From the NCBI GenBank assembly GCA_963837155.1, contig CAWIMB010000001.1:683586-747585 (forward strand): 64,000 nucleotides of DNA, in the 5' to 3' direction. Positions 4,084-57,771 of the stretch are shown here, piece by piece (position 1 is the first letter of the stretch; each line of letters opens with the position of its first letter). Below the pieces are notes generated by a model that saw only the letters and a program-made list of their open reading frames with translations, had not been told where the DNA came from and made no database searches. This stretch comes from an uncultured Actinomycetes bacterium (lineage in GTDB: Bacteria > Actinomycetota > Acidimicrobiia > IMCC26256 > PALSA-610). The translations under genes and the position numbers were made by a program.

Positions 4084-4520
4084 TCAGCGGCCGGTGTGCC
4101 CATCGATGAGCTCGCGGAGGATGTCGGCGTGACCGGCGTGGCGCGCCGTCTCCTCGAGCAGGTGCATCAACACCCAACGCAGATTGACCGGCTGGTCGTC
4201 GTCGGTGCGCCGGCACGGCTCGTCGAGACTCGGGCTCTCGACACGATCGCGTCGACGCGCACCCACGTCGCGCGGTAGGCATCGACCGCGGCCGCGAGCG
4301 TGTCGTCCGGCTGCACGGTGTCGTCCGGAATCGTGACGTCCGCACCGGCAAAGCGATGCACGATCCAGACGATCTCGGCCCTTCTCATGTGCTTCATCAA
4401 CCAGAGCAGCGTCGTTTCGCTGTCGACGAGCCTGCGACGGGCGGCCGCATCGTCGAAACCGGTCACTTTCCGGACCAGCGAGTCCCGCTGGTACTGCATG
4501 AGCTCTAAGGCGACGGACAC
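4084..4520 (-). pseudogene. DinB/DUF664-family protein, frameshifted as assembled
   Basis: The N-terminal part (LMQYQRDSLVRKVTGFDDAAARRRLVDSETTLLWLMKHMRRAEIVWIVHRFAG...AYRATWVRVDAIVSRA) lies in one frame. The C-terminal part (SLDEPCRRTDDDQPVNLRWVLMHLLEETARHAGHADILRELIDGHTGR) lies in another. The switch is at about 4236-4250. Confidence 0.7.
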
Positions 4521-5140
4521 GGTCGAGTGGCGGGAGGGGCGGCGGCGTTCCGCACGCGACGCGATCGTCGATGCTGCCTGGGCGCTCGTGCGCGAGGAGG
4601 GCTTGGCCGCGCTGTAGCTTCGAGACCTGGCGAAACGCGCCGGGATCACCACGCCGACGGTCTACGCATATTTCGACTCCAAGAATGCGATCTACGACGC
4701 GATGTTCGGGCGGGCCGCAGCCGAGTTCGCGGAGCGCATGACCCAGCCGTACGACTCCGCTGATCCGCGCGGTGCTTGCGGGAGGCGTACACCGCTTCGT
4801 CGAGTTCTGCACCGCGGACGTCGCGCGCTACCAACTGTTGTTCCAGCGAACAATTCCTGGCTTCGAGCCGTCGCGCGAGTCGTTTGCGCCGGCGCAGCGA
4901 GCGCTTGACGCGGCGCGCGAACGCTTGGCCCTCAACGGCATCACCAACCGACGTCACATCGACATGTGGACGGCGTTGACGACCGGCCTCGTCGATCAGC
5001 AGATCTCCAACGATCCCGGCGGCGACCGCTGGGCTCGTCTGATCGACGACGTCGTGACGATGTTCCTTGCCTACTGCAACCCGTCCACACCCACCAAGCG
5101 CACGACAACGAGACCCGCGAAGAAAAGAGCTCGATCATGA
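4498..5140 (+). pseudogene. TetR/AcrR-family transcriptional regulator with an in-frame TAG and a frameshift
   Basis: The HTH region reads RRSARDAIVDAAWALVREEGLAAL*LRDLAKRAGITTPTVYAYFDSKNAIYDAMF, with TAG at 4615-4617. A frame switch at about 4768-4772 leads into VLAGGVHRFVEFCTADVARYQLLFQRTIPGFEPS... Confidence 0.75.
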
Positions 5141-5388
5141 CTGCAAACGACGGCAGACTTTTCGGGGAGACGACCACCGGTCTCGACCACGCCGGCTTCA
5201 TCGTGACGAGTCGCGACGACCTGGTCGCGTGGCAGGACCATCTCGAGTCCAAGGGCGTCACACGTGCCGACGTCGCCGACAAGCCGCTGACCCAGTCGCC
5301 GATCGCCGACGAGGCCTACACGTCAGTTCTCGTGTTCCGCGATCCCGACAACATCCAGCTCGAGCTCTTCGCGCCACCTCGCCAATAG
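5137..5388 (+). CDS. Small VOC/glyoxalase-like protein (single half-domain)
   Basis: MTANDGRLFGETTTGLDHAGFIVTSRDDLVAWQDHLESKGV...VLVFRDPDNIQLELFAPP. There is an ATGA start/stop overlap with the upstream TetR frame, and the gene ends in TAG at 5386-5388. Confidence 0.7.
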   Translation: MTANDGRLFGETTTGLDHAGFIVTSRDDLVAWQDHLESKGVTRADVADKPLTQSPIADEAYTSVLVFRDPDNIQLELFAPPRQ

Positions 5389-5394
5389 CGGCAG

Positions 5395-8529: not shown

Positions 8530-9351
8530 TTAGAAGACTTCGGGAACGAAGGTCTGTTCGTCGACCGGCGGGCGGATGTAGTTGTCCGGGCCACGTTCAG
8601 GCAAATTCAGGGGCGCGGAGGTGACGTCGTCGTACGGAACCTTCGAGAGGAGGTGGCTGATGCAGTTGAGACGCGCCGCGCCGCTTGTCGTCGGCATTCA
8701 CGACCCACCACGGCGAGAGTTTCGTGTCGGTGTAGCGGAACATCTCGTCTTTCGCGCGCGAGTACTCGACCCACCGCCGCGAGCCTCGAGATCCATCTGG
8801 CTCAGTTTCCAACGCTTCTCGGGATCGTCGATGCGCGCACGGAAACGGCGCTCTTGCTCGTCATCGCTCACCGAGAACCAGTACTTGATCAGCACGATCC
8901 CGGAGTGCAGCAGCATGGCTTCGAACTCGGGACATGAACGCAGAAACTCCCGGTATTCGTCGTCGGTACAGAATGCCATTACTCGCTCGACACCGGCGCG
9001 GTTGTACCACGACCGATCGAACAGCACGATCTCACCACCTGCGGGAAGATGTGCGACGTAGCGCTGGAAGTACCACTGCGTTCGTTCCTTCTCCGTTGGC
9101 GTTGCCAATGCCGCGACCCGGACGATCCGGGGGTTCGTACGTTCGACGATCCGCTTGATGGTTCCGCCCTTTCCGGCCGCGTCTCGTCCCTCGAACAGCA
9201 CGCAGATCTTCAGCTCTTCTTGGCGCACCCACTCCTGCAGCTTCACCAGCTCCCGTTGGAGCCGCGCCATGTTCTTCTCATAGACGCGCACGGGAAGCTT
9301 CGCAGGTTCGCCCTGGTGCTCCCGTTCTGCGCTCGAGTGACGATCAGCCAC
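8530..9351 (-). pseudogene. ppk2: Polyphosphate kinase 2 (PPK2), two frameshifts as assembled
   Basis: Walker-A-like FEGRDAAGKGGTIKRI, then FDRSWYNRAGVERVMAFCT and WKLSQMDLE. The frame switches at about 8771-8783 into RWVEYSRAKDEMFRYTDTKLSPWWVVNADDKRR. It switches again at about 8672-8684 into ARLNCISHLLSKVPYDD...FVPEVF with TAA at 8530. Confidence 0.85.
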
Positions 9352-9475: not shown

Positions 9476-11627
9476 ATGCATGCTGTCCCGAACAAGACCA
9501 CAACGGATGATGCCTCGCGCCCTGGAACCGCGCGGCGTACGGACACCGTCACCGTGCTGTTCTGCGACTTGGTCGCGTCGACCGAGCGTCAACAACATCT
9601 CGGGGACGACGCGGCCGACGACTTTCGGCGCCTCGCTTTTTTGGCGTTGAAGGCTGCGGCAACGGCGACACTACGGCGATGTCGTGAAAACTACGGGCGA
9701 CGGCATGATGGTTGTCTTCCGCGAAAGTGCCGTCGACGCCGTCGCTTGTGCATCACTGATGCACGACGAGATCGAGACACTCGGAGTCGAGCCGCCCGCG
9801 TACCTCCGCGTGGGAGTGAGCGCGGGCGAGAGCGCGATCGACGACGACGACGACGACTGGTACGGGACACCGGTCGTCGAAGCGGCCCGGCTCTCCGCGA
9901 TCGCCGACGCGGGCCACACGCTGGTGACCGACGTCGTCCGCGTGCTCGTCGGAACGCGCGGCGGCTATCAACTCCGTCCGCTTGGGTCAGTCACCTTGAA
10001 GGGAATCTCACAGCCGGTCGCGATCGCCGACGTCGTCCACGCGCCAATGGCGGCGCCGCTCTCCCGACCACCCGCGATCACCAAGCGGCGCGCGCATCCC
10101 TCGGCGGTCGCGATCTCCGCCGTCGCGATCGCCGTTGGGGGAAGCGCGTTCGTGACCACGCGCTCGCACACGGAACAGCCACGTTCCGCCACTTCGGGCT
10201 ACACGCCGCGAGTGGTCGCGGAGACGTGCCGTTCGTCGGTGCGCGCGCTGGTTCCGAACGCGACCTGCGGCGTCCTCGTGGTACCCGAGGATCGCGAGCG
10301 ACCGTCAGGACGCTGGATCCGTGTGAAGTTCAGTCGTTACCCCACGCGTGACGCTCCTTCCACCAACGACCCGGTGATCGAGCTCGCGACTGCCCTCGAT
10401 GGGGCAGAGATCGTCGACGATCCGGCGCAGTCGCCGGTACGCGACGACGCCGATCTCATCGTGTTCGGCGGGCGCGGTCTCGCCTCATCGGACCCTTCGC
10501 TCACGCGTCCCGAGTTCGCCGCGATCGCTCCCGACATCCTGCGCCACCCCGAGAACGACGCGCCGACCATCGCCAAGGGGCAGACCGCGCTGCGGGCGTG
10601 CCACGACCGACTGGCGCGCAAGGGCGTCGCGCTCGACCACTACACGGTGACGGATGAGGCCGACGACGTTGTGGACCTCGTGCGCGCGCTGCACCTGCAG
10701 CGAGTGAATCTGCAAGGCGTCTGGGACTCCGCCCGCGTCGCGCTCGCCGTAGCGCGGGAGGCGCCCGATGTCGTTCGCACAATGTTCCTGCTCGACCCCG
10801 AGGTACCCAGATCGAGCTTCATCGCCAATCCGGCCACATCGCTCAGCGCCGCATTCGATCGTTACGTCGCGTTGTGCGAGGCCGATCACCCGTGCCACGC
10901 CTCGTATCCGAACCTCGCCCAAGCGTTCCGCGACGACGTCGCCCGCCAGGCCGCACGTCCACGGATCGTGATCCCAACCGACCTGATCTCCGGGACGTTG
11001 CGCGTCACCGTGAAGCATCCGCCCGTCCTCCTCGACGGCGATCGCCTGGCCCAAGGCCTAGCCGCGGCGTTGACCTCGTCGATGCGAAACATGCCACTTC
11101 TTCCGGCAGGTATCGCACATCCCAACGCGACGCTCAACGGTCACTCGCCTTGGCCCCAGAACTTCCCGTTGGTGCTGAAGGACTTCCCGTGGGGTGGCTT
11201 CCTTTCGCGCATGTGCAGTTACGAGACCCACACCCGGTCGGCCGGCGCTGTGGTCACCGCGGCAACGCGCGCCGAGTTCGCCGGCTACGACGACCCCGCG
11301 TTCCGCTGGACATGCGACGCGTGGAAGGTGCCCGAGGTACAACGCGCCGCGTTTGCCCCGGTGAGCAGCGCCGCTCCGACGCTCATCGTCGAGCAGCAGC
11401 TCGACCCGCGCTGGGAATCCGACGCCGCGTCACAGCTCCGCGCCGGACTCACGCATGTCAGCATGCTTTCGTTCCCCACGCTCCCGGGTGGTGCCGCGCC
11501 CGGCGACTTCCCGGCGTGTTACAACGATCTTCGCCGGCAGTTCGTGCACGACCCGAACAGCACGCTCGACACCGAAGCGTGCGCGCGGCAGAGCCCACCC
11601 ATCCGTTTCGTGGTGCCGACACCATGA
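9476..11627 (+). pseudogene. Adenylate/guanylate cyclase - TM - TAP-like alpha/beta-hydrolase-fold fusion, frameshifted as assembled
   Basis: The cyclase N-terminus VTVLFCDLVASTERQQHLGDDAADDF is in frame 2. The frame switches at about 9666-9675 into VVKTTGDGMMVVF...YGTPVVEAARLSAIA. A TM segment (SAVAISAVAIAVGGSAFV) follows, then a domain collinear with tripeptidyl-aminopeptidase-type hydrolases. Confidence 0.75.
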
Positions 11628-11800
11628 TCGACCGAGCCGGCGACCTCACAATGCTGACGTACAGCGCGGCGGTGGCCCGGCCCACCCAGCTGAACACAGA
11701 AGCCGTCGCGGCTCAACGGGAGGTGCTGAGCAATCGCGCGCAGTCCGGGTGCGCACTCTTACCTCTATGACCGCGCGCACGTGAGGTTGACACTGATGGC

Positions 11801-12787
11801 GTGTACGCAACGCGCTACCGCTGCGTGGTACGGAGCCAGATGCCGGTCGAACTCCACAACGTCACGATGCAGCAGCGTCCGGTATTCGTGGCCGGGAACG
11901 CTTCGACCGTAGGCATGGCGGCGATGGGCGTCGCGGCCGCAACAATGTGGGGTCGCGCGCGCCAAAAGAAGCTCGAAGGCCAGGTTCGCTGGGTGCCCGC
12001 AACCGGCGAAGTCGCCCTCACCGACGACCGCGTGGTGCTGCGGCTCACGGCCACCGGCAAGGTCCCCGGCGTGAGGATCACCGGCGATCCGGCGGCGCGC
12101 ACGATCGAACAGGAGATTCCGTACGGATTGCTCAAGCGCTTCGGCACCGAACGCCACGGCGTGTACCTCGATGTGTTCGGACAGAACGCGGTCTGGATTC
12201 AGCCCCAAGACCGCGGCGAGTTCACGCAATGGCTGGCGCACCTGAGCTACGGCAAGACGTGGACCGACCCGGCCCCCGTTGAAGTTCGCCAGGAGCTTGC
12301 GGTCGCGGACTGGTGCCAGGACAGCCGGTTCGTGTTCGGCCTCCCGGCGGGTTGGGTGCGTCCCCCGGCGGCCGGGCTTGGCCAACAGGCAGCGGCCTGC
12401 GCGCCGTGGATCCTGCGCGCTGCCGTCTGTACCGAGCTCGGCGATTGGGAAGCGCAAGTGCTCGTCATGGAGGTCACCGGCGAGGACGCGCGCAACAGCC
12501 CGACCGATCCCGTCATGATGGCCGCCGAGTTCGCGGCCGGAACGAAGATCACACCGCTCAGACCCACGCAGCTGTACGCGCTCGACACCACTCCGGGCGT
12601 CATGATGCGCGGCATGTCATCGGTGGCCGGAGCGTCGTTCGACCGCACCTACGTCGTGGTCAACCGGGGCGGGGTACCGATCGTCGTCTGGTACACGGTG
12701 GTGGGCGGCGCGCTTGGCGACGGAAGTCATGAGCGCTGGCTTCCCGACTTCCACACCATGCTGGCGACCTGGCACTGGTACGTCTGA
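11801..12787 (+). CDS. Hypothetical protein
   Basis: 328-aa ORF with non-artefactual composition and no motif I recognise. The start is uncertain; an internal Met near 11840 is possible. Confidence 0.55.
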   Translation: MYATRYRCVVRSQMPVELHNVTMQQRPVFVAGNASTVGMAAMGVAAATMWGRARQKKLEGQVRWVPATGEVALTDDRVVLRLTATGKVPGVRITGDPAARTIEQEIPYGLLKRFGTERHGVYLDVFGQNAVWIQPQDRGEFTQWLAHLSYGKTWTDPAPVEVRQELAVADWCQDSRFVFGLPAGWVRPPAAGLGQQAAACAPWILRAAVCTELGDWEAQVLVMEVTGEDARNSPTDPVMMAAEFAAGTKITPLRPTQLYALDTTPGVMMRGMSSVAGASFDRTYVVVNRGGVPIVVWYTVVGGALGDGSHERWLPDFHTMLATWHWYV

Positions 12788-13528: not shown

Positions 13529-16500
13529 GCCGGAAAGTCTTCCAGACGAGTCAACTCCTGCGTGAGCCGATCGACGACGGCGTCGAAGTCTTGATCGACA
13601 CCCCTCGCCATTCCCTCCTCGATCACGTCCGCGGGTAGACCGGACCGGCCCAGGATCCGTCCGAGCTCGGCCTCACCGTCGCTGTTGAGCGCGGGCTGGC
13701 CTTGCACAAGTCCGATGAGCTCGAGCGCCGTTGCGGTATCGCCGTTGGTCAAGCGCCGATCGGCTTCCGCAAGCACGCAGAACATCAACGCCCACGTCGC
13801 GCCCGTTTTCCGTACGACGGTGAGCGCCTCATGAGTCAGCCGCCGGGCCTCAGGGTCCTCGCCGAGACGGACGTGGACCTGTGCCATGTTCGCCGCAGAT
13901 GTGCCGTCACGAATTTGGCTGCCGAGCCGACGACTGAGCGACCTCGCCTGCCGGTAGTGGTCGAGCGCGGCGAGATATTCGTCCCGCGTCTCTTCTGCAT
14001 CGCCGAGGAGATGGTGACCGACGCCGAGGTTGCTGTGTGCAAGCGCCTCCCCCTCCAGATCGCCGACTTCGACCGCGATGGCAAGCGCCTCGGTGCTGTA
14101 CCGCACCGCGGCCCGGACGTCACCGTCCATCCCGGCGATCATGGTGAGAAGGGCGAGCACCACACGGGTGGCGGCCGGATTCTGGTCGTGCCTTGCCAAC
14201 TCGCGGGCCTGGGCGGCGTACGCCTTTGCGGCGTCGGCGTCACCCCGGGCCATCGCGTTCCACGACAGGCCCGCGAGGACCCGCCCGAGCAGTCTTCCTC
14301 CCTGCCGTTCTACCTCCGGCAACACCTCGTCGAGCATTGCCTGTTCGCGATCGAACTCGCCCCGCTCGGACGCGATCCAGCTCCCCAGGAAGAGCGCCAT
14401 GGAGCGCGCCTGCGGGGATTCGGCGCGGCGTAGCGCTTCGTCGTCGTAGCCGGAGGCGGCATCGAGGTCACCCAACCGCAGACATGCCTCGGTCATCGTC
14501 GTCAACGCATCGACGGGGGGTGCCACCTCGTCTTGTTGCCACAGCTCGAAGGCCTCGTCGAGGCTCCGGCGCGCCGCCGCCGAGTTGCCGGCACCCAGCG
14601 ACACCGCCGCGGCTCGATACAACCAGTCCGCGGCCGACGCGAGGTCACCGCCCATGCGATGGTGCGTGGCAATCAGCCCGGCGTATTCCGTCTGCCGCTC
14701 GCCGGCATGGTCGCTGATCCAGTCGGCCACGAGTCGGTGCAGACGTTGTCGATCGCGCAGCAGCACCGTTTCGTACGTCACGTCCCTGAGCAACGCGTGC
14801 TTGAACACGAACTCGACGCACTCGTCGAATGACGAATACTCGCGGCGGAAGACAAGCTCGCGCTGACACGCTGCTTCGAGGCAGCTCGCCGTTACCTCGA
14901 TGTCGCGGTGGCCGATGGAGGCGACGGTGCCGTCCCAGAACACGCGGCCGACCACCGACGACCCCTGCAGCGCTTCCCGTTCTGCGAGCGCGAGACTGTC
15001 GATGCGAGTCTGGAGCACTCCCGTCAACGTGGCCGGCACTCGCTCCGGATCGAGTCGCTCGGCGTGGATCCGCCACGGGCCCCACGACGCGCCCGTCTCG
15101 ATGACGCCGTCGTCGATCAGCATCTTCACGAGCTCTTCCACGTAGAACGCATTACCGTCTGCTCGCTCGACGATCAGTTGCGTGAGGTCGTGAGGGACGG
15201 ACTCAGCGTTCTGCAGGACCTCGTCGACAAGCGTCGCGCGTCGCGTCCGTGCCGAGCGGCTCCAGCTGCAACGCCACCGACGTCCGCGCGACCAGGCCCT
15301 CGGCCTCGGGTCGTTCCAGCAACGCTGATCGCGCCGCTCCCACAACCAGCAAGTGGACCTCGGCAAGTTGCGCGATGAGGTCGTCGACGAGCGCCAACGA
15401 CTCGTCATCGGCCCAGTGCAGGTCCTCGAGGAAGACGACGACTGGGCCATCGGCTGCCAGCGCATCGAAGTAGCGGAACACGTGCGCACGTGCAGTCGAC
15501 GCGAGCTGTCCCGACCCGAGCAGACGCTGCACGGCTGCGCTCGACCCGAGATCGAAGCCCAGCCAGTGAGCTACGAGGTCGGCCTCGCCCGCGGTCAGCG
15601 TCGGACCGAGGCCGAGGTGCATCTTGTCCGCCACCACCGAGGCCGAGTCGCTGTCGCGCACACCGAACCGATCGCCGAGCAGATCGCGCACGAGGGCGAA
15701 CGCGGCCGAGCGGTGCGTGGCAAGGGCGCGACCCTTGAAGAAGTAGGTCGCGGCGGGGTGCAGCTCGATCCAGTTCTCGAACTCGTAGAGCAATCGTGAC
15801 TTGCCGATGCCGGCCTCACCGATGATCGTCACCGCTCGTGTCACCGGCCGTTCGACCACGGACTCGAACTCGGCTCGTAGCACTCCGAGCTCGTCGGCCC
15901 GGCCGATCATGCGCGTCTCGACGCCTTCGACGCCGCGCGTGGACATGCGAAACGCGTGAGCCTTCGCTTGCCGCACCGCATACACGCGGATCGGCTGATC
16001 CTTGCCCTTCACCGTCGCCGCATCGAGCTCTTCGACGTCAAACACGCCGCGGATGTGGCGATAGGTGTCGTGCGTGACGAGTACTCCACCCAGCGGCGCG
16101 AAATTCTGCACCCGGCTCGCCACGTTCACGGTGTCGCCCATCGCGGTGAACTCGGCGCTCGCGCCAACCACGCCGAGGTGCGCGGGCCCGGTGTTGATCC
16201 CGACCCGCATCATGAGCCGGTCGACGGAGCCGCGGCGCTTCAGCTCCTCCTGCATGGCCAGGCCGGCGCGCACGGCGCGCTCCGGATCATCTTCCTGCGT
16301 CGAGATCACACCCCACACCGCCATGACGGCGTCGCCGATGTGCTTGTCGACGCGCCCCCCATGATCCGCGATGACCTTGTCGAGGCTCGACCACAGCTCG
16401 TTCATCACGCCCGCGACTGCCTCCGGATCCAAACGCGACGACATCGACGTGAAGCCACTCACGTCGGCGAACATCACCGTGACCTGGCGGCGCCGCTGCG

Positions 16501-22284: not shown

Positions 22285-22417
22285 GCTTCAAGTCTACGAG
22301 CACAGCGCGACTGCGGGATACGTTCACCGATGTGGCCGGAAGTGGCGCGCGGATAAGACGACGAGCACCGTGACGGCCGGCGGCGGCGTAGACACCACCA
22401 TCACAGCGCCTCTCGCG

Positions 22418-22460
22418 GTGGAGACGATGGGACTCGAACCCACGACCCCCTGCTTGCAAA
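22418..22460 (-). repeat. Direct copy of the 3' 42-43 nt of tRNA-Ala (distal att-type repeat)
   Basis: gTGGAGACGATGGGACTCGAACCCACGACCCCCTGCTTGCAAA is identical to 44383/44384-44425 and then diverges. Confidence 0.85.
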
Positions 22461-22566
22461 CTGCGATCGGACGCCTTCGCTAGCAGGGCGTTTTCGTAGT
22501 TCTGCAGGTCAGCGGCGTCCATGGTGTCCGCCGGTTACCGCTGGGAACCGTCAGTGACCATCCGTA

Positions 22567-23427
22567 GTGGCACGGAAGTGGCACGACACGCACTCGTGTC
22601 GCGTTTGCATCACTGCATGCGCCATTCCCGAGTGCACCTGTCACTTCGACCATGCGGAGCGCAACATGCACTCGAACTCCGATCACGCTCACTCCTCACT
22701 CGATCTCTCTACCTCCTCGAGCGTTCAACCTTCCAGCCCCTCTCATCGCATCAACCTCTCCGCGTCTTCACCTCTCGATCCCCTCACCGCCTCCACCCTC
22801 GAATCCTTCTCCAAGATCTCATACAGACTTGCCGGTTCCGCGAGCGGAACCAGCCGAAGCAGCGGAAGCTTCCTCGACGAAGCCGCGGCGGAGCTCGCGT
22901 TCGAACCCGATATCGATCCACGCGATCCCGAATCACTGAACGAGTTCGCACGTCGGTACCGCGAGCGAACCGCACGAGCGCTTGCACTCGAACAAGCCGC
23001 GATCGAGTACAACGACGCCGTACATGCAGCCGGCGTCGTGCGCAGACGCATCGAACGGCGGCAGGCAGCGCTGCGGCGGCGCGCCGAACGCAAGGACTTG
23101 AAAGAGAACCGCCGGACCAATCGGCCCGTCCACGTCGACGTCAACCCGGCCGCGTGGAACGCGGTGAAGCAGGAGGCGTTCCGCCATCGCCGCACAGTCG
23201 GGGACACGGTCGGCGAGCTCGTGTTGAGGTCTGTACAAGACGGCGTTGTCCCTCGACGCAGACCTCACCAGTCGTCTACATCGCGCTTCGCTCGCGTCTT
23301 CGTCGACGTGGAGACGTGGGGACAGTTCCGAGCACTTGCCCTTGACGCGCACGTGTCAATCGGCCGCCTGATCGGAATGCTCGTCGAGCGTGAGGCCCGG
23401 CGACTCGGTGCGGAAGGCGAGCAGTGA
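22567..23427 (+). CDS. Island protein with two RHH-like C-terminal repeats, translationally coupled to the integrase (possible excision/regulatory factor)
   Basis: 286-aa ORF with a low-complexity Ser-rich N-terminal third, so the true start is probably downstream (for example Met at 22666). The C-terminus has two similar units, VHVDVNPAAWNAVKQEAFRHRRTVGDTVGELVLRSV and VFVDVETWGQFRALALDAHVSIGRLIGMLVEREA. Its stop overlaps the integrase start (GTGA at 23424-23427). Confidence 0.5.
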   Translation: MARKWHDTHSCRVCITACAIPECTCHFDHAERNMHSNSDHAHSSLDLSTSSSVQPSSPSHRINLSASSPLDPLTASTLESFSKISYRLAGSASGTSRSSGSFLDEAAAELAFEPDIDPRDPESLNEFARRYRERTARALALEQAAIEYNDAVHAAGVVRRRIERRQAALRRRAERKDLKENRRTNRPVHVDVNPAAWNAVKQEAFRHRRTVGDTVGELVLRSVQDGVVPRRRPHQSSTSRFARVFVDVETWGQFRALALDAHVSIGRLIGMLVEREARRLGAEGEQ

Positions 23428-35408: not shown

Positions 35409-35455
35409 GGATGTTACGGCCGTCGCCCGAAGAACCTTGTGATGGGTACTAGCAA

Positions 35456-35697: not shown

Positions 35698-36910
35698 TTA
35701 GTCGCCGGGGATCGCGGCGATGGCGACGAAGAGCAGGGCCGCGGCGAGCGCGGTGCTGGCGACGGTTATGAGGAGGTAGCGGGGTGTGCGGAGACGCCAC
35801 GCGGTGATTGCGGTGAGGAGGGCTTGGCAGAGGTAGTAGACGGCGAACGCGCGGGACGCGAAGCTGACGATGGAGAAGATGTTGGCGAACCAGGCGACGA
35901 GCGCAGCGCCGAGCGCGACTGCTGGATAGCCGACGTTGCCTCCTTGGTGGCGGGGACGGTCGGTGAGCATCTCGCTGCTGCCGGCGGTGTCCGCGGTGGC
36001 GGCAGAGAATTGGCTGGCGATCGCGGCGGCGACGAGCAGCGGCACGAGAACGGGGGACACGATGCGCGCGGCGTCGAGAATCGCGGTTTCTCGTGGACCC
36101 GAGCCGAGGTGCCCGAAAAAGGGGACGACCAGCGCCGCGAACGCGGCGTAGATCGCGCCGCTGATGAGTTGCGCAGATCGCATGGTTCGCACCCGCAGGT
36201 CGCGGTTGTAGTAGTGGCTCAGGTAGCGCGAGGTCTCGAAGCCTTGGACGACGAGGAGCATGCCTGCGAGGCGCCGGGCGACGGTGATGCTGCCGATGTC
36301 GATCGGGTGGTGCTGGTACGCGGTGGTCGTCGCGGATCCGTGGAGTGCGTCGTAGGCGAGCATGCCGGCGAGGAGCCCCACGATCACGACGAGCTTGAAG
36401 TCGACGGCGGGTATCTCGACGGCTTCGATGCCGTGCAGGCCGCGAACCAGGCCCAGTACTCCGATCGCGGCGAGGATCGCGGTGGTGATGAGCCGGCCGT
36501 TGAGGTTGGTGTCTGCACCGAGGGCGTCGAGGACGAACGACGCGAGCAGCCGCAGGTAGAACGCGAACAGAGATCGTGTAGGCGAAACCGAGCGCGACCC
36601 GCGACACCCGCTCGAGGTCCACGATCGGACGGAACGGCTCTGGGGCAGCGAGTTCGGGTTCGACGTGGAGGATGTTGAAGCGGAGCGAGGCGCCGATCGC
36701 GTACGCGGCCAGCACGATCCCCAACATCGCGACCGGAGCCCACTCGGCGACCGTGCTCGCCAGCAGCGGGGCCAGCACCAAGAAGCCGCTGCCGATGATC
36801 GACGCCAAGGGCGTCACGGTCGCCCGCCATGCGGATGACGTGCGCGTCGCCGGACGGGTGACGACGACGACACACGCAAGGATCCCGACTACCACGGCTG
36901 CCGTTTCCAC
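35698..36910 (-). pseudogene. Polytopic integral membrane protein (permease-like), frameshifted as assembled
   Basis: The N-terminal half, WRATVTPLASIIGSGFLVLAPLLAS...ALGFAYTIS, is in the frame of ORF 35537..37285. The frame switches at about 36565-36575 into FAFYLRLLASFVLDALG...VVQGFETSRYLSHYY... (ORF 35698..36387). The GTG start near 36910 is tentative. Confidence 0.6.
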
Positions 36911-38469: not shown

Positions 38470-38644
38470 ACGATCTTCGCCAAACGAACGCCACTCTCAC
38501 CGCCGCGCGCGTCGCACCTCTACGAACCGTGATGGCGCTATCAGCATCGACTCGACGGCCAAGACGTCGTCATCGGAGGCGTCCTCCACCAGGTGGTGCG
38601 AAGGCATCAACGAGACTCGACAACAAGTTCACTAAGTTTCTCGC

Positions 38645-39372
38645 GTGAACTTTGCCTCGGGCGTCTTGGCCGGCGTCGTAGGGACTCTCATTGCGTCGGC
38701 TCTTCTATACGTGCTCGCCAGGACACGTGGTTGGATACGCACGACGACTCGCACCAGACGGTCTGATCGTGGACTTCTACTTCGCCTACGAGCCGCGGGG
38801 GTGTCGAATTTCTACGGCAGCCGAAGTGACTACGTGCTCCACCGTAGTGCCCCTCGTCTAACCGATTTTCTAGCTACGGCTGATCGCTCAATTGTTGTCG
38901 CCGGCTATTGGCTCGGTCACGGCAACGAGGCGGAGAACATCGCCAGTGCACTAGCAGACATGTTGGAGCGACGTACCGAGCTGTCGGCCACCATCGCACT
39001 GATCGACCCAACCAGCCCGCACCTCTCCCAGCTGGCGGATTACCTTGACCTGCCTTTTCAAGAGCTCCGCGACCGCATCACCTCGTCACTCCGCAATCTC
39101 TATCGCGGAGCGAGGACATGTCTGCTGGGGCTCGCGGCCGACTCGACCTGCGGGTCTACCGTGACCTTCCGATGGCATCCGTCATCCTCCTCGACGCCGA
39201 CAGTGAACGCGGCCGCATCCAACTCGATTTCAAGGCCTTTGGCGCTCCGCGGGATTCGAGCTTCGGACTTGAGTTGCGCGGGACAGACAAGCCGCTCTAC
39301 GGCGTGTGCAAACGAGCGTGGACGGGGCTCGTTCAGCGCGCTGTCGCCATGGATCCCAACGTCCACCTGTGA
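38645..39372 (+). pseudogene. Membrane-anchored DUF5919-like protein (gene A of the candidate two-gene system), single frameshift as assembled
   Basis: GTG start, then TM segment FASGVLAGVVGTLIASALLYVL. The body is FYGSRSDYVLHRSAPRLTDFLATADRSIVVAGYWLGHG...TIALIDPTSPHLSQLADYL...SLRNLYRGAR. The frame switches at about 39111-39118 into LDLRVYRDLPMASVILLDADSERGRIQLDFKAFGAPRDSSFGLELRG...CKRAWTGLVQRA. It is collinear with the DUF5919 domain of actinobacterial XRE-type proteins as I recall it. No HKD motif is visible. Confidence 0.55.
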
Positions 39373-40262: not shown

Positions 40263-40645
40263 CGGCGGCTGCCGCCAAGCGTGCCTGCTGCGCGCGCGCG
40301 CCTTCTGAGCTCCTGATTTTGCGAAGGTCATTGCGTGCGATGGCTCCTGCGGTGTCGACCACCGGGCACGCGTCGAGCGGTGCGTAGAACAAAGTCAGCG
40401 CACCCCGTCCGAGCAGAAGCTCATCGGTAAGACAGCAGCTTGGGTCAGAGTTTCAGACGGCGGCGCTAGCAACGCCGACCTAAGCCCCGAGAACATCGCC
40501 CAACTACTGGCAAGCGAGGCACGCGGCGCAAAACGCACTACAGCATGGGCGGCATTCGCACTGCGCGCTTGCTTGTTTCGTTCCTCAGAAGTTGACTTGG
40601 TTCAACGAGCGGGACGGCGCGGGAACTGGAAGGGTGGGGCCGACC

Positions 40646-41368
40646 ATGAGACTGCTTCGATCCCGTCTCGTGGTCGTGTGCGTTGCGAGCACTTGTACAG
40701 CGTTGGTCGTTGGTGGCATCGCATGGGCGGTGCAGAGTCCCGTCGACAGCAACCTTGTCGTTAATGCGTGTTACAACGCCAAGAACGGGGCGATCAAGCT
40801 AGACGTCAAGGGCGCGTGCCCCCGCAGCGGCACCAACACTCCGATCTCATGGAATGCGCGCGGTCCGCAAGGCGAGGCCGGCGAAGCTGCGTCACCTCGC
40901 GTGGTCGCAGTTGCTGACGGCTCTTGGCAACCAAGTACGCCATCCCAGCCGCTTGTGAGCGGCGCGCTGTTCGCACAGGACAACGACACCTGCCTCGGAA
41001 CGGTCGGCTACCCGTGTACCACGGTGCTCAGTGCTGACTGGACAGCTCTGCCGGCGGTCTCCCTCACACTGCCTGCTACGTCACAAGCGGCGACCCTCGA
41101 TGCACGATTCTCCGCCTCGGTGTCGTGCTTCGGAACCAGCGTGGACAAATACATGCGCATCGTCGTCAACGGAGAGCCGGTAGGCGACGCCGCACCGCTC
41201 GCGGCTCTCCCACCCATGACGCCGCAACAGGCGGAGTTGCCCGTGACGGTTGAACGCACCGTACCGATCGCGGCAGGAGCCGACCACGACGTGCAGGTCG
41301 AGGTACGGGTTGGTTCGAACTCAGTGTGCGCGATGGGATGGCATCTGATCGCCGAAGCAATCAGCTAA
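40646..41368 (+). CDS. Secreted/anchored hypothetical protein, paralog 1 (shared Cys-motif leader module plus a short GXY stretch)
   Basis: The start was trimmed to MRLLRSRLVVVCVASTCTALVVGGIAWA. The module is VQSPVDSNLVVNACYNAKNGAIKLDVKGACPRSGTNTPISWNARGPQGEAG, followed by a unique C-terminal domain. Confidence 0.65.
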   Translation: MRLLRSRLVVVCVASTCTALVVGGIAWAVQSPVDSNLVVNACYNAKNGAIKLDVKGACPRSGTNTPISWNARGPQGEAGEAASPRVVAVADGSWQPSTPSQPLVSGALFAQDNDTCLGTVGYPCTTVLSADWTALPAVSLTLPATSQAATLDARFSASVSCFGTSVDKYMRIVVNGEPVGDAAPLAALPPMTPQQAELPVTVERTVPIAAGADHDVQVEVRVGSNSVCAMGWHLIAEAIS

Positions 41369-41414: not shown

Positions 41415-42567
41415 ATGAGAGTCTGGCGCTCACGCGTGTTCGCGGTGTGCATAGCAAGCGCGGTCACTGCGATCGTCGTCGGAGGTGTCGCGTGGGCTAT
41501 CCAGAGTCCCGTCGACGGCAACGGCGTAATTCACGCGTGTTATAACCCCCACAATGGCGACCTGCGTCTCAACATCAAGGGAAGCTGCCCAACCCGGGGG
41601 GCGAAGCACGCCGCTCACATGGGCCGCGGTCGGACCACAGGGACCGAAGGGCGACCCCGGCCCGCAAGGTCTTACGGGTCCGGCGCGCGCGAGCGCACTG
41701 TCGCAGCGCATCGCGACGCTGCACTGGTATGGAGACGAGACATCATTTGACTCCTTCGCAATCCCCGAGCCGGCTCGCGGATTGGTGTTCGACGGCACAT
41801 ATACGTGGGCGCTCACGGGCGGACTGTCGAAGGTCGATCCCGTGACTGGGGGTGTCGTCGCAACGTACCCGTCGCCCGATAATCCATATGCCGCAGCCGT
41901 TGAGGGCGGTCACCTATGGGTCACAGACGCGAATTCCGACACCGTAAACAAGGTCGACAGGTCGAGCGGCAACGTTGTCGGCTCGTTCCCGAGCGGTGGC
42001 GCACACACAACAGGCATCGCGTTTGACGGGACGCATTTCTGGGTTGCCCACGCTGAGAGCACGAACGTCACAGAGATGTCCCTATCAGGCAGCATCGTCG
42101 GTTCGACAAACATCGGAGCAAACGGCGCCACGGATGTGCTGTTCGACGGAACCAACGTGTGGGTGGCCCACTCCGCGGTCAAGCAGCTCGTTGAAATCTC
42201 ACCGACCACTGGCAACATCCTCCGGACCGTGTCCCTTGACGGTCAGCCACGCGGACTCGTGTACGACGGTACGAACATCTGGGCAGCAGACCAGAGCAGC
42301 GACAGCGTCGCCAAGGTTCAAGCGAGCACAGGGACCATCGTGGGCACGTTCGGTCTTGGGTCGGGCTCGCAACCGTCCGGCATGACGTTCGATGGAACTC
42401 ACATCTGGGTCTCGGGCGAAGGCAACGGCCACGTGAGCGAGCTTCTCGCGAGCTCGGGTGCCGTCGTTAATACGTTCGCAATCGGACCTCGTCCGAACCG
42501 GATGATCTTTGACGGAACGGACGTGTGGGTAGCTGACGTCAACCTTCCAATGTTGACGAGGTTGTAG
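41415..42567 (+). pseudogene. Secreted paralog 2: shared leader module, collagen-like GXY stretch and a 7-bladed beta-propeller (NHL/Vgb-like). Frameshifted in a G6 run.
   Basis: MRVWRSRVFAVCIASAVTAIVVGGVAWAIQSPVDGNGVIHACYNPHNGDLRLNIKGSCPTRG is followed by the G6 tract at 41596-41601. The frame then reads STPLTWAAVGPQGPKGDPGPQGLTGP, followed by 7 repeats of the FDGTxxWVA type. Confidence 0.7.
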
Positions 42568-44220: not shown

Positions 44221-44383
44221 GCGAAGGCGGTCCAGACCTCGGGCAGACCTCGGAGACCTCATTCAGACCTTCGTACGAAGGTCTCCGTCGGTCTTCGTCG
44301 GTCGCGGTCGGTCGGTGTTCACGACTGCTGCCAAACAGATCCCTACCTGCTGCTTCGCACGTCGACGCAGGTAGCGCAGTGAG

Positions 44384-44457
44384 TGGAGACGATGGGACTC
44401 GAACCCACGACCCCCTGCTTGCAAAGCAGGTGCTCTAGCCAGCTGAGCTACGTCCCC
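44384..44457 (-). tRNA. tRNA-Ala (anticodon UGC), CCA not encoded
   Basis: The reverse complement GGGGACGTAGCTCAGCTGGCTAGAGCACCTGCTTTGCAAGCAGGGGGTCGTGGGTTCGAGTCCCATCGTCTCCA folds as a cloverleaf. It has a 7-bp acceptor stem with the G3:U70 Ala identity pair, the anticodon loop TTTGCAA, and the T-loop TTCGAGT. Confidence 0.95.
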
Positions 44458-44682: not shown

Positions 44683-47600
44683 GTGGTGAGAGGGAACGAC
44701 GTGCGGCAATCACGAGCAGTTCGCGAAGCGCGCTCGTGGTCGCGCGCGCGTACGCGCCGCACGCTCGTCGCGCTGGTTCTCGTCGCAATCCCAATATCAA
44801 CTGGACCTTCCCGACGTCATACGCGCTCTCGAGCGGCAGCAGCGTCAACATCGCGCACCCGATCTACTACAGCGACAGCTCCGACGGCGCCGTTTCCTTC
44901 ACGGTTGACTCGGGCCCGTGTTCGCTGAGCGGCACGTTGCCGACCGTGATGATGTCTGCGAGCGGCCTTGGTACCTGCGTCATCACCGTGAGCACGGCCG
45001 CAACCGCGACGTACGACGCGGGACAGGTCACCAAGAACATCGAGATCGTGAAGCAGACGCCCTTCATCTTCTTCTCCGGCGGAGCCGCCCTCGCGGACGG
45101 GCAGACTCGGACGCTCTCAGCCAGCACGAACTCGAACGGCGCCATGTCGTATTCGCTCGACGCGGGCGATGCTGCCGACTGCTCGCTCACCGGCAACCAG
45201 CTCACCGCGTTGTCGGGAACAGGTTCGTGCCGCGTGACCGCGCAGACCACCGAGACTGCCACCTACTTCGCAGGGTCGAGCCTTGCAACCATCACCTTGG
45301 CAAAGGCGACCCCCACCCTCGCGTTCGCGAGCAGCAGCGCTGCGTTGGCATACTCGCAATCCCGCACTCTGTCGGCATCGTCCGCGTCCACCGGCGTCGT
45401 TACCTACAGCTCCGACGGTCTCCGCGACGTCGACATCCGGGCTCACGGTTTCGTTCAGCACGAGCGGCAACTGCACCAACAGCACCACGACCGTCACGAT
45501 CACCGGCGCCGGCACCTGTACCGTCACGGCGAGTCAAGCCGGGAACGCGAACTACAACGCCGCGTCGGACGTCGCGCGCACGTTCAATATCGCCAAGGCC
45601 AACCAAACGATCACGTTCAACGCGCTCAACGACTCGACGTACGGCGGCTCGCCGATCGCAATTTCCGCGACTGCGTCGTCTGGACTCACCGTTTCCTTCG
45701 GCACGTCCGGCAACTGCTCATACGGCAGTGGCGCGATCACGCTCACCGGTGCGGGTACGTGCACGGTGACGGCGAGCCAAGCGGGCAACGCGAACTACAA
45801 GGCCGCCCCCGAGGTCGCGGACCTTCACGATCGGGAAATCGCCGCAAGACATCACGTTCAACACGCTCGCCGACAAGACCTACGGCGCGAGTGCCTTTGC
45901 CGTCTCGGCCAGCGCATCTTCGGCACTCACCGTCACGTTCACCACCTCGGGCGACTGCACCAACTCGGGCACGACCGTCACGATCACCGCGGCCGGTTCC
46001 TGCACGGTAACCGCGCACCAGGCCGGGAACGCCGATTACGACCCGGCACCCGACCTGGCCCGCACGTTCACGATCAACAAGGCCAACCAGACGATCACGT
46101 TCGACGCTCTCGGCGACAAGACGTACGGCGATGCAGCTTTCGTCGTGTCCGGTACCGCCAGTTCGAGCCTGACGGTGACGTTCACGACGGCGGGCAACTG
46201 CATCAACTCCGGCACGACCGTGACGGTCACCGGCGCCGGCACCTGCACCGTGACCGCGTAGCAGAGCGGCGACAGCAACTACAACGCCGCATCCGACGTC
46301 GCCCGCACCTTCACGATCGGGAAGGCCGACCAGGCAATCACCTTCAACGCGCCCGACGATGCAACCTTCGGTGATGATCCGTTCACGGTATCGGCGACCG
46401 CGAGTTCCGGACTCTCCGTGACGTTCACGTCGTCGGGCGATTGCTCGACGTCAGGGGTGACCGTCACGTTGACCGGCGTCGGAACATGCACGATCACCGC
46501 GCACCAAGATGGCAACGCGAACTACAACGCAGCGTCCGACGTCGCCCACACGTTCAACGTCGGGAAAGTGGCCCAGACGATCGCGTTCAACCCCCTCGGC
46601 GCCAAGACGTACGGCGACAGTGCCTTCACCGTTTCGGCGACGGCAACCTCGGGACTCACCGTCACTTTCACGACGGCCGGCGGCTGCACCAATTCCGACA
46701 CCACGATCACGATCACCGGCGCGAGCACGTGTACCGTCACCGCGCATCAAGCCGGCAACGCGACCTACAGCGCCGCAACTGACGTCGACCAGAGCTTCAC
46801 GATCGCCAAGGCCACCCAGACGATCACCTTCAACCCGATCACCAGCGCGGTTGTCACCGACGACCCCTTCGTGATCTCCGCGACGGCCAGTTCCGGTCTC
46901 GCCGTCACGTTCACCACGTCGGGACCGTACACCAACAGCGGCGCGACGATCACACTCACCGGTACCGGCACCTGTATCGTCACCGCGCACCAGGTAGGCA
47001 ACAGCAACTATCTCGCCGCGAACGACGTCGCGCGAGGCATCGGTGTCGATCGCGCCGAACAGACCATCACGTTCGGCGCACTCGCTGACAAGACATACGG
47101 CGACGCACCATTCACCGTCACGGCGACCGCAAGCTCCGGCCTCGCGGTCGAGTATTCGACGTCGGGCCCGTGCACGAACACCGGCGCAACCATCACCATC
47201 ACCGGCGCCGGTACCTGCATCGTCACCGCCGATCAAGATGGCGACGCCACGTACTACGCCGCGCCGTCCGCCGGCCAGGCGTTTGGGATTGCGAAGATCG
47301 CGCAAACCATCGATTTCCCGCCGCACGCGGCCGTCACGGTGATCGACGATCCCTTCGACGTCTCCGCAACGGCAAGCTCGGGCCTGCCAGTGACATACAC
47401 GACGACGGGCCCGTGCACGAATGCCGGACCGACCATCACGGTCACCGGTACCGGCACGTGCATCGTGAACGCGCACCAGCCCGGAAACAGCTACTACGAG
47501 ACGGCACCCAGCCCCGGTATCGGTATCGGCGTGGACCGCGCCGACCAATCGATCACGTTCGCTGCGCTCGCCGACAAGACGTACGGCGACGCGCCGTTCA

Positions 47601-55080: not shown

Positions 55081-55572
55081 GTGCGACGATTCCGAGTTCG
55101 AATTGGTGTGCTCCTCGCGTTAGCGCTCACCATCCCTGCACTCACGTTGCTCACCGGTTCGGCGTCGGACGCGTCGTCCACGCGGGAGCACCGACACGTG
55201 ATCCTGATCCCTGAGGCCGACAAGTTCGTGCCGTACCACCTGACCGTGCACCTCGGTGACCGCGTCACCTGGGTCAACAACGACACCGACGACCACACGA
55301 TCGTCAGCGACGACGCGTTCAACACGGACGGCCACCACGGTCTCGATCACCTGATCCCCGGCACGGAGAACAATGGTGGCAAGCCGGGAATCTTCACGCT
55401 GCGCTTCTGGCATGCCGGAACGTTCGTGTACTACTGCCGGTTCCATGCGCATCTCGATGCCGACAGCCAGCCGGTCGCGCCCGGTCCCGACGGCGGCATC
55501 CAGGATGCGAACGGCAACTTCGGCACGCCGATGTCCGGCATCATCTCCGTGAAGGGGTTCTTCGACAACTGA
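55081..55572 (+). CDS. Secreted cupredoxin (plastocyanin/amicyanin-like blue copper protein)
   Basis: The signal is MRRFRVRIGVLLALALTIPALTLLTGSA. The motifs VTWVNNDTDDHTI and YYCRFHAHL...M give the His/Cys/His/Met ligand spacing. Confidence 0.8.
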   Translation: MRRFRVRIGVLLALALTIPALTLLTGSASDASSTREHRHVILIPEADKFVPYHLTVHLGDRVTWVNNDTDDHTIVSDDAFNTDGHHGLDHLIPGTENNGGKPGIFTLRFWHAGTFVYYCRFHAHLDADSQPVAPGPDGGIQDANGNFGTPMSGIISVKGFFDN

Positions 55573-55596
55573 TCAACGCACACGTGCGGCGTCGTC

Positions 55597-56709
55597 TCAA
55601 CACTCGCCGGCATCACCGGGGACGACGCCGTACCGTGCGTCGCAATCGAACCTGTCGAGGTAATAGATCGACGAGATCGTGTGGTTCTCACCGCAGGAGT
55701 CGAAGGCCGTCGAAGAGTCGGCGAAGACAAAGCCGCGCAACTTCCCAGCCGCATCGATCACTTGCAGCCCGCTGTAGGTGTGGCCGAGCTCCTTCGCGAT
55801 CTTGCCGTCACCGTCCCAGTCATGGCTGGTTTGCAACAGCACGCGACGCGCGACCTCGCCCCTGTTCTTCTTCGGAGCACCGACGTACACGAAGACCCAT
55901 GTAGGTCCATCGGGGTAGACGTACCGGTATGTGTCAGTCGTCGTGACGCGGAAAACCGGCATTGTGAGGCCGGTCTCGTACACGACGTTGTCGGACGCCG
56001 GCGCGCCGCACCACGCGTTGTTGCGCCTGATCAAGCCTTCATAGTCCGTGCCTGCGGCGTCGGCCAACGGGCGTGCAACCGTGAAATCGGGGCCGGGCGC
56101 GCCGAACGCGAACCCGGTGTTCGCGGCGCCGCGCTCACGCGCGCCAGTGCCGCCGACGTAAAACGGGCCGACCATGTCGCTCGCGGCGACGAGCTCGAGC
56201 TTCGAGAGACGCGGGTCGCTGGGATCGTCGTCCCAGGTGTGTAGCCACGATTCGGTGTTGCCGTCCGACCATGTCACGTGGATCTGCCCGGTAGTCGTGC
56301 TCCACGTACCGACACGCGTCGCGAGGCTCGACCGACCGCGGACGAAGGTACGCAATCCCTGGATTTGCGATTTGCGGTCGTGATCGTACGGATAGGCCGG
56401 ATCGGGATTGATCTCCGAGCCCACGCGTCGCGCCGCATTGCCGTACACGCGGCCGGTCGCGTCACCCTGCCACTCCCAGAACCGCACTTGAACGGATCCG
56501 CCACCACACGAGCCGGAAAACGCGTACATCGCAAGACGCGCGAGGTGCGCTCCGCTCCCTCCGACACCGGTAATCGTGGCGACGAAGTTTCCGGGCACCG
56601 GGCATACGGCAGCCCGCGCCGGGGTCGACGTCGACGGCGCGATGACAAGGGTGCCCACCGCCACGACGATGATCCCCACCTTGCGCACAGGCCGGCTCCT
56701 CAGTCCCAC
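55597..56709 (-). CDS. Secreted hypothetical protein
   Basis: 370 aa with a signal/anchor (VGIIVVAVGTLVIAPSTSTPARA) and a Cys-containing globular body. No motif was recognised. Confidence 0.6.
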   Translation of the reverse strand: MGLRSRPVRKVGIIVVAVGTLVIAPSTSTPARAAVCPVPGNFVATITGVGGSGAHLARLAMYAFSGSCGGGSVQVRFWEWQGDATGRVYGNAARRVGSEINPDPAYPYDHDRKSQIQGLRTFVRGRSSLATRVGTWSTTTGQIHVTWSDGNTESWLHTWDDDPSDPRLSKLELVAASDMVGPFYVGGTGARERGAANTGFAFGAPGPDFTVARPLADAAGTDYEGLIRRNNAWCGAPASDNVVYETGLTMPVFRVTTTDTYRYVYPDGPTWVFVYVGAPKKNRGEVARRVLLQTSHDWDGDGKIAKELGHTYSGLQVIDAAGKLRGFVFADSSTAFDSCGENHTISSIYYLDRFDCDARYGVVPGDAGEC

Positions 56710-57771
56710 TCGTGCAGCTCAGGCAGCACCTTGTTCGCGAACGTCTCCATGCTCTGGCGCGCCGCGTCGAACGGCAGGCCGGAGTAGCGGAAGCAACACG
56801 TGAGGTCGAAATCACCGACGATCGCACGTCGCGCTTCGAGGCGCGCGAGGATCTGCTCCGGCGTGCCCCACGCCTGGACGCCGAGATACATCTCGCCGAG
56901 CTTGTCCTTGCCGATTGCGCGGAGCACGTCGACCGCGCTGCCGTACGACTCGTATCCCTTGGCAGCCTTGAAGTGCTCGTCGGCCAGTTCGTAGTGCTCG
57001 AGCACTTGGGTGAGATATCCGGCGACGTGTTCCTGGGCGACTGCTTCGGCGCGTGCGGCGTCCGTGTCGCAGTACACAAAGTCGCACGTCGTCGGAGGGT
57101 ACGGCTCGCGCCCATGACGTTGCACGAAGCGGTCCCGGTACGTTGCGACGGCGACGGCCTGATCATCCCACGGCCGCTGGCTGAAGATCACCATGCGCGC
57201 ACCGAGATCGGCCGCCGTGTCGAGCGAGTCGGGTGACATCGCCACGCAATACGTTCGGTCGACGAACGACCGCGTCGGCCGGGGCCGGATCGGCGTGGGT
57301 GCCTGCGGATAGTACGGGCCGTCGCCTTCGATGACGCCGGTCTCCAACGCGCGCAGGATCATTGGTGCGGCTTCGTCGAAGCGGTCGCGCGACTCGTCCA
57401 TCGGCATGCCGAACCCGGCGTACTCGCGTCGGCGCCAACCCGCGGCCCATGCCGAACAGCACCCGCCCGTTGCTCAGCGTGTCGAGCATCGCGATGCGCT
57501 CGGCGACGCGCAGTGGTGAGTTCCACGGCAGGATCACCGCGCCGGTGCCGAGCGCGATCCGGTGCGTGCGCCCCGCCATGTAGGCGAGGAACGCGACGTT
57601 GTCCGGGCAGAACGCGTAGTCGAAGAAGTGATGCTCGACCGGCCACAACGCGTCGAAGCCGAGCTCGTCGGCAAGCTCGCCGAGGGCGACCTCCTGGGCG
57701 AAGACGTCGTCGTCGCTCGTCTCGACCCCGTAGCCGGCGGACTGGAACACCATCTGGATCCCGACTCGCAC
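56700..57771 (-). pseudogene. LLM-class (luciferase-like) flavin-dependent oxidoreductase, frameshifted as assembled
   Basis: The N-terminal half is MRVGIQMVFQS...GFDALWPVEHHFFDYAFCPDN...GTGAVILPWNSPLRVAERIAMLDTLSNGRVLFGMGRGLA. An apparent extra C near 57431-57436 shifts into RREYAGFGMPMDESRDRFDEA... (ORF 56700..57407). Confidence 0.85.

Follow-up and report, generated by a model that had tools for sequence, protein, structure and literature searches.

Small frame-breaking indels in a 64-kb stretch of an actinobacterial metagenome contig: likely long-read consensus errors over relics of tRNA-Ala islands

The 64,000-nt stretch analysed here (hereafter the window) comes from contig CAWIMB010000001.1, positions 683,586-747,585, of the assembly GCA_963837155.1, which represents an Acidimicrobiia-like actinobacterium known from uncultured material. 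Insertions and deletions (indels) of one or two nucleotides break many of the genes in the window. In our view most of these 1-2-nt indels are likely to be consensus errors, left by the assembly of a metagenome from long reads, that favor CGCG or (CG)n sequence and overlie a few genuine relics of islands integrated at a tRNA-Ala gene and possibly some real nonsense mutations. A sequence-only reading of the same DNA had ascribed the interruptions mainly to sequencing or consensus error; this view is favored by the clean 1-2-nt nature of the indels, the conservation of the repaired genes, the independent frameshifts found in sister assemblies and the intactness of an orthologue from JGI.

Small indels in otherwise conserved genes

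The window is actinobacterial DNA with a G+C content of 66%, of which 54.9 of the 64 kb (~86%) score as coding. Its closest protein relatives are encoded by uncultured Acidimicrobiia and other Actinomycetota metagenome-assembled genomes (MAGs) at ~70-73% amino acid identity, and no conserved synteny with these best relatives was found. Six intact proteins of the window, looked up by exact sequence, all belong to a single contig of 1,341,653 bp with entries in NCBI and ENA. Of the ~62 genes that we count, interruptions affect 17, and another 4 are truncated relics, amounting to 27-34%, in agreement with the earlier figure of about one third.

Frame switches were located using a codon-usage Viterbi procedure with frameshift states, followed by three-frame reading. 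The junctions were resolved by aligning homologues, paralogues or PDB relatives back onto the window DNA, and the joined fragments were searched as repaired proteins against Pfam. The Viterbi path shows same-strand frame switches at almost all sites listed in the sequence-only reading, recognisable protein resumes in another frame at each listed site, and the homologue alignments concur, such that nearly all of its coordinates proved right to within a few bases. Lesions beyond its list are the in-frame TAG codons of the TetR-family and DsrE-like genes and two frameshifts in a CoA-transferase remnant (Table 1).

In total there are 21 small frame-breaking indels, comprising eleven +1 insertions, five -1 and four -2 deletions and one of unsettled type in a hypothetical gene previously labelled DUF5919-like. 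In addition to these there are two complex junctions (in the CoA-transferase and a giant repeat protein) and the three in-frame TAG codons. Twenty of the 21 small indels could be settled as clean +1, -1 or -2 events in genes that are otherwise colinear with their homologues, and after repair the proteins align over their whole length with homologues encoded in one frame. Single Pfam domain matches cross the junctions in the case of MST/DinB, TetR_N (across its TAG), Amidase, PPK2, Guanylate_cyc, DUF6544 and Pyr_redox_2.

The genes to the left of the islands illustrate how tightly the lesions can be placed. The repaired mycothiol-S-transferase/DinB-like (MST) protein gives one PF04978 match (profile positions 4-148 of 149) across its junction; residues 106 and 108 of the homologue P0137 correspond to 4239 and 4236, with only 2 nt left for residue 107. 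In the TetR-family gene the TAG lies in the helix-turn-helix and the TetR_N profile (1-47 of 47) runs through it, and both homologue and DNA alignments agree on 2 missing nucleotides further downstream. The amidase retains only a 'G' for the x residue of the GGSxRxPA motif; alignments to PDB structures require one more residue between the R and the P, and the Pfam Amidase match crosses the junction. For the repaired PPK2, the PF03976 match (5-227 of 229; 343 bits) passes through both junctions, where the residue counts were set by alignment to the Francisella PPK2. At least 8 homologues of 690-734 aa of the cyclase-hydrolase fusion have neighbouring residues corresponding to 9670 and 9672, and its Guanylate_cyc match likewise crosses the junction. 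The repaired cyclase-ATPase has 1036 aa and is matched at 99% coverage by single open reading frame (ORF) homologues of 1027-1058 aa, with residues 465 and 466 of P0001 corresponding to 15236 and 15234. At the far end of the window, the luciferase-like monooxygenase (LLM) aligns without gaps to LLMs from PDB once repaired, which confirms the junction, ~10 nt from where it had been placed.

A comparable picture is seen in the larger island and beyond it. The repaired DUF6544 protein matches PF20181 (2-217 of 221) through its junction, with residues 51 and 52 of P0146 at 29169 and 29171. In more than 20 homologues of the conserved hypothetical protein, neighbouring residues correspond to 30303/30301 and 29996/29996, which establishes the second break that had been suspected at 29990-30000. 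The sulfide:quinone oxidoreductase-like (SQR-like) protein aligns without gaps to human SQOR through both of its junctions, and the PF13686 profile (4-153 of 156) runs across the TAG of the DsrE-like gene. The repaired N-terminus of the secreted beta-propeller protein aligns without gaps to that of the neighbouring paralogue encoded at 40592-41368 (58% identity, E=4e-34); a profile search for propeller homologues recovered generic beta-propeller proteins only, and none of these reached the junction. Three sites are confirmed in the giant protein. An alignment of eight of its repeat units shows a unit junction out of register at ~45411-45419 (repeat spacing 243, 241, 243), a GTCG--CGG gap at ~45818 relative to seven sister repeats, and CAC, CAT, AGT or GAT in the sister units at the place of the TAG. 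The break in the DUF5919-like gene is a putative one, seen as a switch in coding potential, and the label itself finds no Pfam, NCBIfam or PDB match.

Independent frameshifts in related assemblies

Comparison with orthologues, a check that the earlier reading had suggested, was carried out for the TetR-family gene. Its orthologues were fetched with a chimeric query, and an intact JGI orthologue was used as the ruler. P0128, P0133 and P0161 come from the ENA assemblies ERZ25039509, ERZ25039458 and ERZ25039550, which have Flye-style 'contig_N' names. The frame shifts at residue 88 in the window, at 85 in L082 (P0161), at ~145 in L083 (P0133) and at 173 in L084 (P0128), whereas the JGI copy is in one frame throughout, and DNA alignment shows that the lesions of the window and L082 are distinct events. 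Each of the three database proteins is a run-on chimera with a TetR N-terminus followed by off-frame translation; P0161 regains frame only in the next gene, and so ends as the C-terminus of a downstream glyoxalase. The nearest relatives come from 'contig_N' assemblies of the ERZ2503xxxx series; for the contig of the window itself, platform and coverage are presumed.

A composition-only detector, which counts same-strand frame switches where the upstream frame extends >25 nt beyond the switch, was run over all fetched loci. It reports 0.25 events per coding kb in this window against 0.029 in 19 isolate-genome loci, so that the small indels exceed chance. The corresponding densities are 0.063 in 34 other MAG loci, 0.148 overall in 21 MFD MAG loci, with 5 of those 21 at 0.34-0.67, and 0.78 in the ERZ contigs. 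In two high-density MFD loci from unrelated lineages (L040 and L050), joining of the fragments restores full-length single Pfam matches, namely UPF0182 (profile 2-770 of 770), PP_kinase_C_1, ABC_tran and Guanylate_cyc with AAA_16. An all-against-all homology detection across the loci was noisy, because a query ORF that is itself frameshifted gives rise to spurious junctions in the sequences it matches, and was used only qualitatively.

The MFD-LR MAGs were assembled from Nanopore reads only, using Flye (--meta, --nano-hq) and one round of Medaka, and their authors acknowledge Nanopore-associated errors in MAGs of lower coverage (PMC12313526). Nanopore bins below ~40x have been reported to require short-read polishing, with indels causing frameshifts (PMC9262707).

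Among the isolates the strongest detector signal (0.167/kb) was observed in L059, from Streptomyces sanglieri JCM 12607, which lies on a contig with the Canu-style name 'tig00001087' and has 10 homology-suggested junctions in 15.6 kb.

Sequence context of the lesions

The sequence-only reading had held that the lesion often consists of a single additional C or G within a short homopolymer. This is true of both SQR-like sites, the G6 run of the propeller gene and the vapB relic, but such cases are a minority of the full set, and the link to homopolymers is weak: a run of at least 3 bases lies near 43% of the sites compared to 25% of background positions. Only one of the nine six-base runs carries a lesion, and runs of 7 or more bases are absent from the window. 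The actual context signal is instead CGCG or (CG)n. At 13 of 20 sites a CGCG is present no more than 6 nt away, where 3.8 such sites would be expected (p=8e-6; ~1e-3 after correction for 136 tetramers), and all four 2-nt deletions sit in CG or GC-alternating sequence. Insertion bias was tried as a discriminator and abandoned: frame directions had initially indicated ~15 insertions to 5 deletions, but four apparent '+1' shifts turned out to be 2-nt deletions, and after junction resolution the counts carry no useful bias.

Selection on the membrane protein gene

The gene for a membrane protein of the PF27187 family is the sole interrupted gene with relatives close enough for a selection test. 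When it is compared to L086 (92.2% nucleotide identity) and L087 (86.7%), no indel other than the extra T is seen over 1.25 kb. With L087 as the outgroup, we count 16 synonymous and 10 non-synonymous codon changes along the branch of the window, and 22 and 11 along that of L086. Because the two branches resemble each other, we see no relaxation of selection on the window branch in this one testable gene; the lineage of the window was thus under purifying selection until essentially the present.

Origin of the lesions and competing explanations

These observations can be accommodated if the contig is a long-read, most likely Nanopore/Flye-type, metagenome assembly of an uncultured Acidimicrobiia-like actinobacterium (the platform being presumed), the consensus of which would keep ~0.4 small indel errors per coding kb, or ~Q34. 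Each error would shift the frame of an otherwise intact and functional gene, and gene callers would then report two or three fragments in its place. The errors would gather at CGCG/(CG)n, including the four 2-nt contractions, independently of long homopolymers; since they concentrate there, a context-specific, possibly methylation-related weakness of basecalling or polishing at modest coverage may be at work. Real decay of an ordinary kind comes on top of this: the tandem tRNA-Ala islands hold an integrase remnant and the vapB relic, together with the internally deleted CoA-transferase and the truncated MFS gene, and up to three of the TAG codons may be real as well.

The lesions resemble previously described Nanopore and long-read frameshift artefacts (PMC9262707; the MFD-LR catalogue, PMC12313526; a high-GC Propionibacterium benchmark, PMC11649196) in that genes which are otherwise intact are split by 1-2-nt indels, and a sizeable fraction of all genes appears truncated. 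The same pattern recurs in the sister Flye-style assemblies and some MFD MAG loci, and the JGI orthologue is intact. The classic accounts stress homopolymers, which matter little here; the enriched context is CGCG/(CG)n, and four of the lesions are dinucleotide contractions.

Several points weigh against this explanation. Both the platform and the absence of the indels from the real DNA of the organism are inferred. The EF-G orthologue is unbroken in 80 of 80 reference loci, and in most MFD loci the density is close to zero; the source would therefore have to be a poorly covered bin. The lesions show mild clustering (Monte Carlo p=0.025 in a binned chi-square test, p=0.36 in the longest-gap test), spatial uniformity being too weak a discriminator to decide the matter, and the islands, with 28% of the coding sequence, contain 10 of the 21 small indels (p=0.05). 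Some of the decay is genuine, as the three TAG codons and several truncations attest, and two of the TAG-bearing genes are also frameshifted. Finally, actinobacterial NucS repair does not remove 1-2-bp indels (PMC11551767), and hence real small indels are not implausible in such an organism.

The foremost competitor is genuine and very recent mass pseudogenisation, whereby under relaxed selection a quarter to a third of the accessory genes would each have gained one or two real frameshifts. We regard this as unlikely. It draws on the inability of NucS-type repair to correct 1-2-bp indels, on the mild clustering and island enrichment of the lesions, on the lack of any obviously essential gene among the broken ones and on the real lesions found alongside, namely the three TAG codons, the internally deleted CoA-transferase and the truncated MFS gene. 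A mixed lesion spectrum of TAG codons, internal deletion and truncation is indeed present, but makes up a minority of the lesions. Genuine slippage should favor the longest homopolymer runs, which are precisely what the lesions avoid. The single testable gene is without relaxed selection, and the repaired genes attain near-maximal domain scores, as exemplified by PPK2. Unrelated organisms with the same assembly style show equal or higher lesion density, even in conserved genes such as ppk1 and UPF0182, and the TetR-family gene has an intact JGI orthologue.

Mycobacterium leprae, M. ulcerans and Sodalis glossinidius are well known for pseudogene-rich genomes in reductive evolution. The window is similar to these in its high interrupted fraction, and in combining frameshifts with a few nonsense codons and deletions. 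It differs in having just one or two lesions per gene, ~86% of its length scoring as coding, a tested gene without relaxed selection, and a lesion density shared with unrelated MAGs of the same technology. Further, we noticed no transposase, insertion sequence (IS) element or IS expansion in scanning the ORFs of the window, where no systematic search for them was made.

It is conceivable, and to our minds quite improbable, that the indels are real and that a soil member of the Acidimicrobiia with NucS-type repair is burdened with many frameshifts of very recent date, directed at CGCG/(CG)n sites. We give slightly less credence still to population heterogeneity, under which the indels would be true polymorphisms. 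They might be phase-variable alleles or alleles confined to particular strains, or the consensus might mix co-assembled strains, in which case the contig would be a mosaic found in no single cell. The lesions are somewhat enriched in islands and accessory genes, the most strain-variable parts of a genome, and small indels in homopolymeric tracts have been proposed to underlie phase variation and gene silencing in mycobacteria, where reversible frameshifts of this type arise without indel repair by NucS (PMC11551767). The present case shares with the mycobacterial one an actinobacterial host and gene-inactivating small indels, but there are no long tracts: no run in the window reaches 7 bases, one lesion only falls in a six-base run and most sites lie in runs of 3 bases or fewer. 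Moreover, 11 of the 21 lesions are outside the islands, and no link between the CGCG context and phase variation is known. Programmed ribosomal frameshifting, or recoding of another kind, has nothing in its favor except the frame breaks themselves, and is in effect refuted, as the orthologues of every gene tested are encoded in one frame. In addition, the breaks shift the frame either way and some are 2-nt gaps, no slippery heptamer is common to the sites, and 17 unrelated genes would all require recoding.

Relics in tandem tRNA-Ala islands

The 48 nt at the 3' end of the tRNA-Ala(TGC) gene, whose original copy is at 44382-44429, recur at 26334-26381 (100% identity) and, as a degenerate att copy, at 22417-22464 (90%). 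These repeats bound two tandem integrative islands at 22.4-26.4 kb and 26.4-44.4 kb, with an integrase and vapBC, in which the majority of the relics are found. ORF 23424-24566 was read as a XerC-like integrase from its translation rather than from a profile match and is best termed a putative one. ARAGORN reports a second 'tRNA-Ala' at 26335-26407; we reject this as an att-site pseudo-tRNA, since it shares the 3' half of the real gene exactly but has an unrelated 5' half. A 41-nt segment of the larger island (38535-38575) matches the 3' end of the integrase gene (24452-24492) with 85% identity, which suggests a decayed second integrase inside that island.

The case for some genuine decay, which the sequence-only reading had also made, is sustained by several lesions of a different kind. 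The CoA-transferase remnant has lost ~220 internal residues at a junction at ~27465; after two repairs its C-terminal 128 aa correspond to residues 303-430 of the 434-aa enzymes in PDB, the middle being absent, and its -2 deletion falls at the RGA motif. The MFS transporter gene is truncated to a fraction of its profile. The vapB relic, which adjoins the degenerate att copy, is 78-84% identical to the intact copy at 25953-26180 in pairwise DNA alignment. These, and perhaps the TAG stops, are most likely genuine relics. The islands have the 48-nt direct repeats of a tRNA 3' end, integrase, vapBC and truncated cargo expected of tRNA-integrated elements; they account for the relics and truncations only, and not for the 11 small indels outside them. 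A further coding-like fragment had been called a truncated S53 peptidase, a label that receives no Pfam, NCBIfam or PDB support.

Table 1. Interrupted genes, relics and the tRNA gene of the window, with their lesions (coordinates are those of the window)
Feature	Start	End	Strand	Lesion or remark
Mycothiol-S-transferase/DinB-like gene	4102	4613	-	-1 at ~4237-4238
TetR-family gene	4504	5140	+	TAG 4615-4617; -2 at ~4766-4768, context GATCC[TC]GCGCG
Amidase gene	5994	7401	+	-2 at 6552
PPK2 gene	8533	9357	-	-1 at ~8777-8778; +1 at ~8677
Class III cyclase-alpha/beta-hydrolase fusion	9476	11627	+	+1, C at 9671, context ACA-C-TAC
Cyclase-AAA ATPase-TPR gene	13537	16645	-	+1 within GACG, 15232-15235, no homopolymer
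Coding-like fragment	20314	20574	-	87 codons, from coding potential
vapB relic	22038	22290	-	-1 at ~22266; +1 (CC to CCC) at ~22199
4-hydroxybutyrate CoA-transferase remnant	27294	27880	+	Internal deletion (complex junction); -2 at ~27578; -1 at ~27675
DUF6544 gene	29032	29767	+	+1, C at 29170
Conserved hypothetical gene	29874	30557	-	+1 at 30302 (GCG-C-GAA); -1 at 29996 (G3 to G2)
SQR-like gene	31030	32273	+	+1 at 31073-31076 (C3 to C4); +1 at 31548-31550 (C2 to C3)
DsrE/DrsE_2-like gene	32588	33067	+	In-frame TAG 32753-32755
Membrane protein gene (PF27187 family)	35701	36928	-	+1, one extra T at ~36566-36567
Truncated MFS transporter remnant	37113	37754	+	MFS_1 profile positions 59-183 of 347 only
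Hypothetical gene ('DUF5919-like')	38645	39493	+	Frame switch at ~39111-39140, -1 or +2, from coding potential and overlapping ORFs
Secreted beta-propeller protein gene	41373	42567	+	+1 in G6 run 41596-41601
tRNA-Ala(TGC)	44383	44457	-	ARAGORN
Giant protein of 81-aa (243-nt) repeats	44796	49315	+	Complex junction at ~45411-45419; -2 at ~45818; TAG 46259-46261
LLM gene	56703	57771	-	+1 at ~57444, GGC-C-GCG

Neighbouring features

Judging by homologue alignments, the 5' ends of the divergent MST/DinB-like and TetR-family genes, on opposite strands, appear to overlap over 55 nt or more (4504-4559). The region 11615-11800 is coding-like and in frame with the next gene (11801-12787), with a stop at ~11768 between them; this could be a further nonsense lesion, or the region may simply be an upstream ORF.

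In the larger island the conserved hypothetical protein belongs to a family whose ~200-aa domain sits at either end of database proteins of 390-470 aa (P0173-P0292), in some of them together with DUF6544; these longer relatives could be over-extended ORFs in high-GC DNA or true fusions. The stretch 31030-35119 forms a sulfur-related cluster, in which the SQR-like and DsrE-like genes are accompanied by a DsrC/TusE-like (32270-32557) and a DsbA-like gene (33066-33671); it also includes a gene at 34052-35119, whose JGI relative P0123 (at least 90% identity) is annotated as nitrite reductase (NO-forming). Upstream of the membrane protein gene, ~11 perfect copies of the 9-nt tandem repeat GCGGGAGCA occupy 35293-35427, in apparently non-coding DNA. 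The beta-propeller protein and its paralogue have in common an 80-aa N-terminal module, composed of a signal/transmembrane segment, a Cys-containing segment and a collagen-like GPQG, and their C-terminal domains differ.

Implications

Taken at face value, an annotation of this window would report ~20 false pseudogenes or split genes in 64 kb, with a deflated estimate of completeness and a suggestion of genome decay that is probably absent. Frameshift errors of this type also reach public protein collections, as illustrated by the three run-on chimeras that were retrieved as TetR homologues. The clustering at CGCG/(CG)n offers a practical hint for the polishing of high-GC Nanopore MAGs, and would define a specific failure mode if confirmed by reads. 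Should the indels prove real, they would point to an undescribed indel hotspot context or to early genome decay in a free-living actinobacterium. The real biology in this stretch is ordinary, consisting of tandem tRNA-Ala islands with decayed cargo, and the value of the finding lies in its use as a quality flag.

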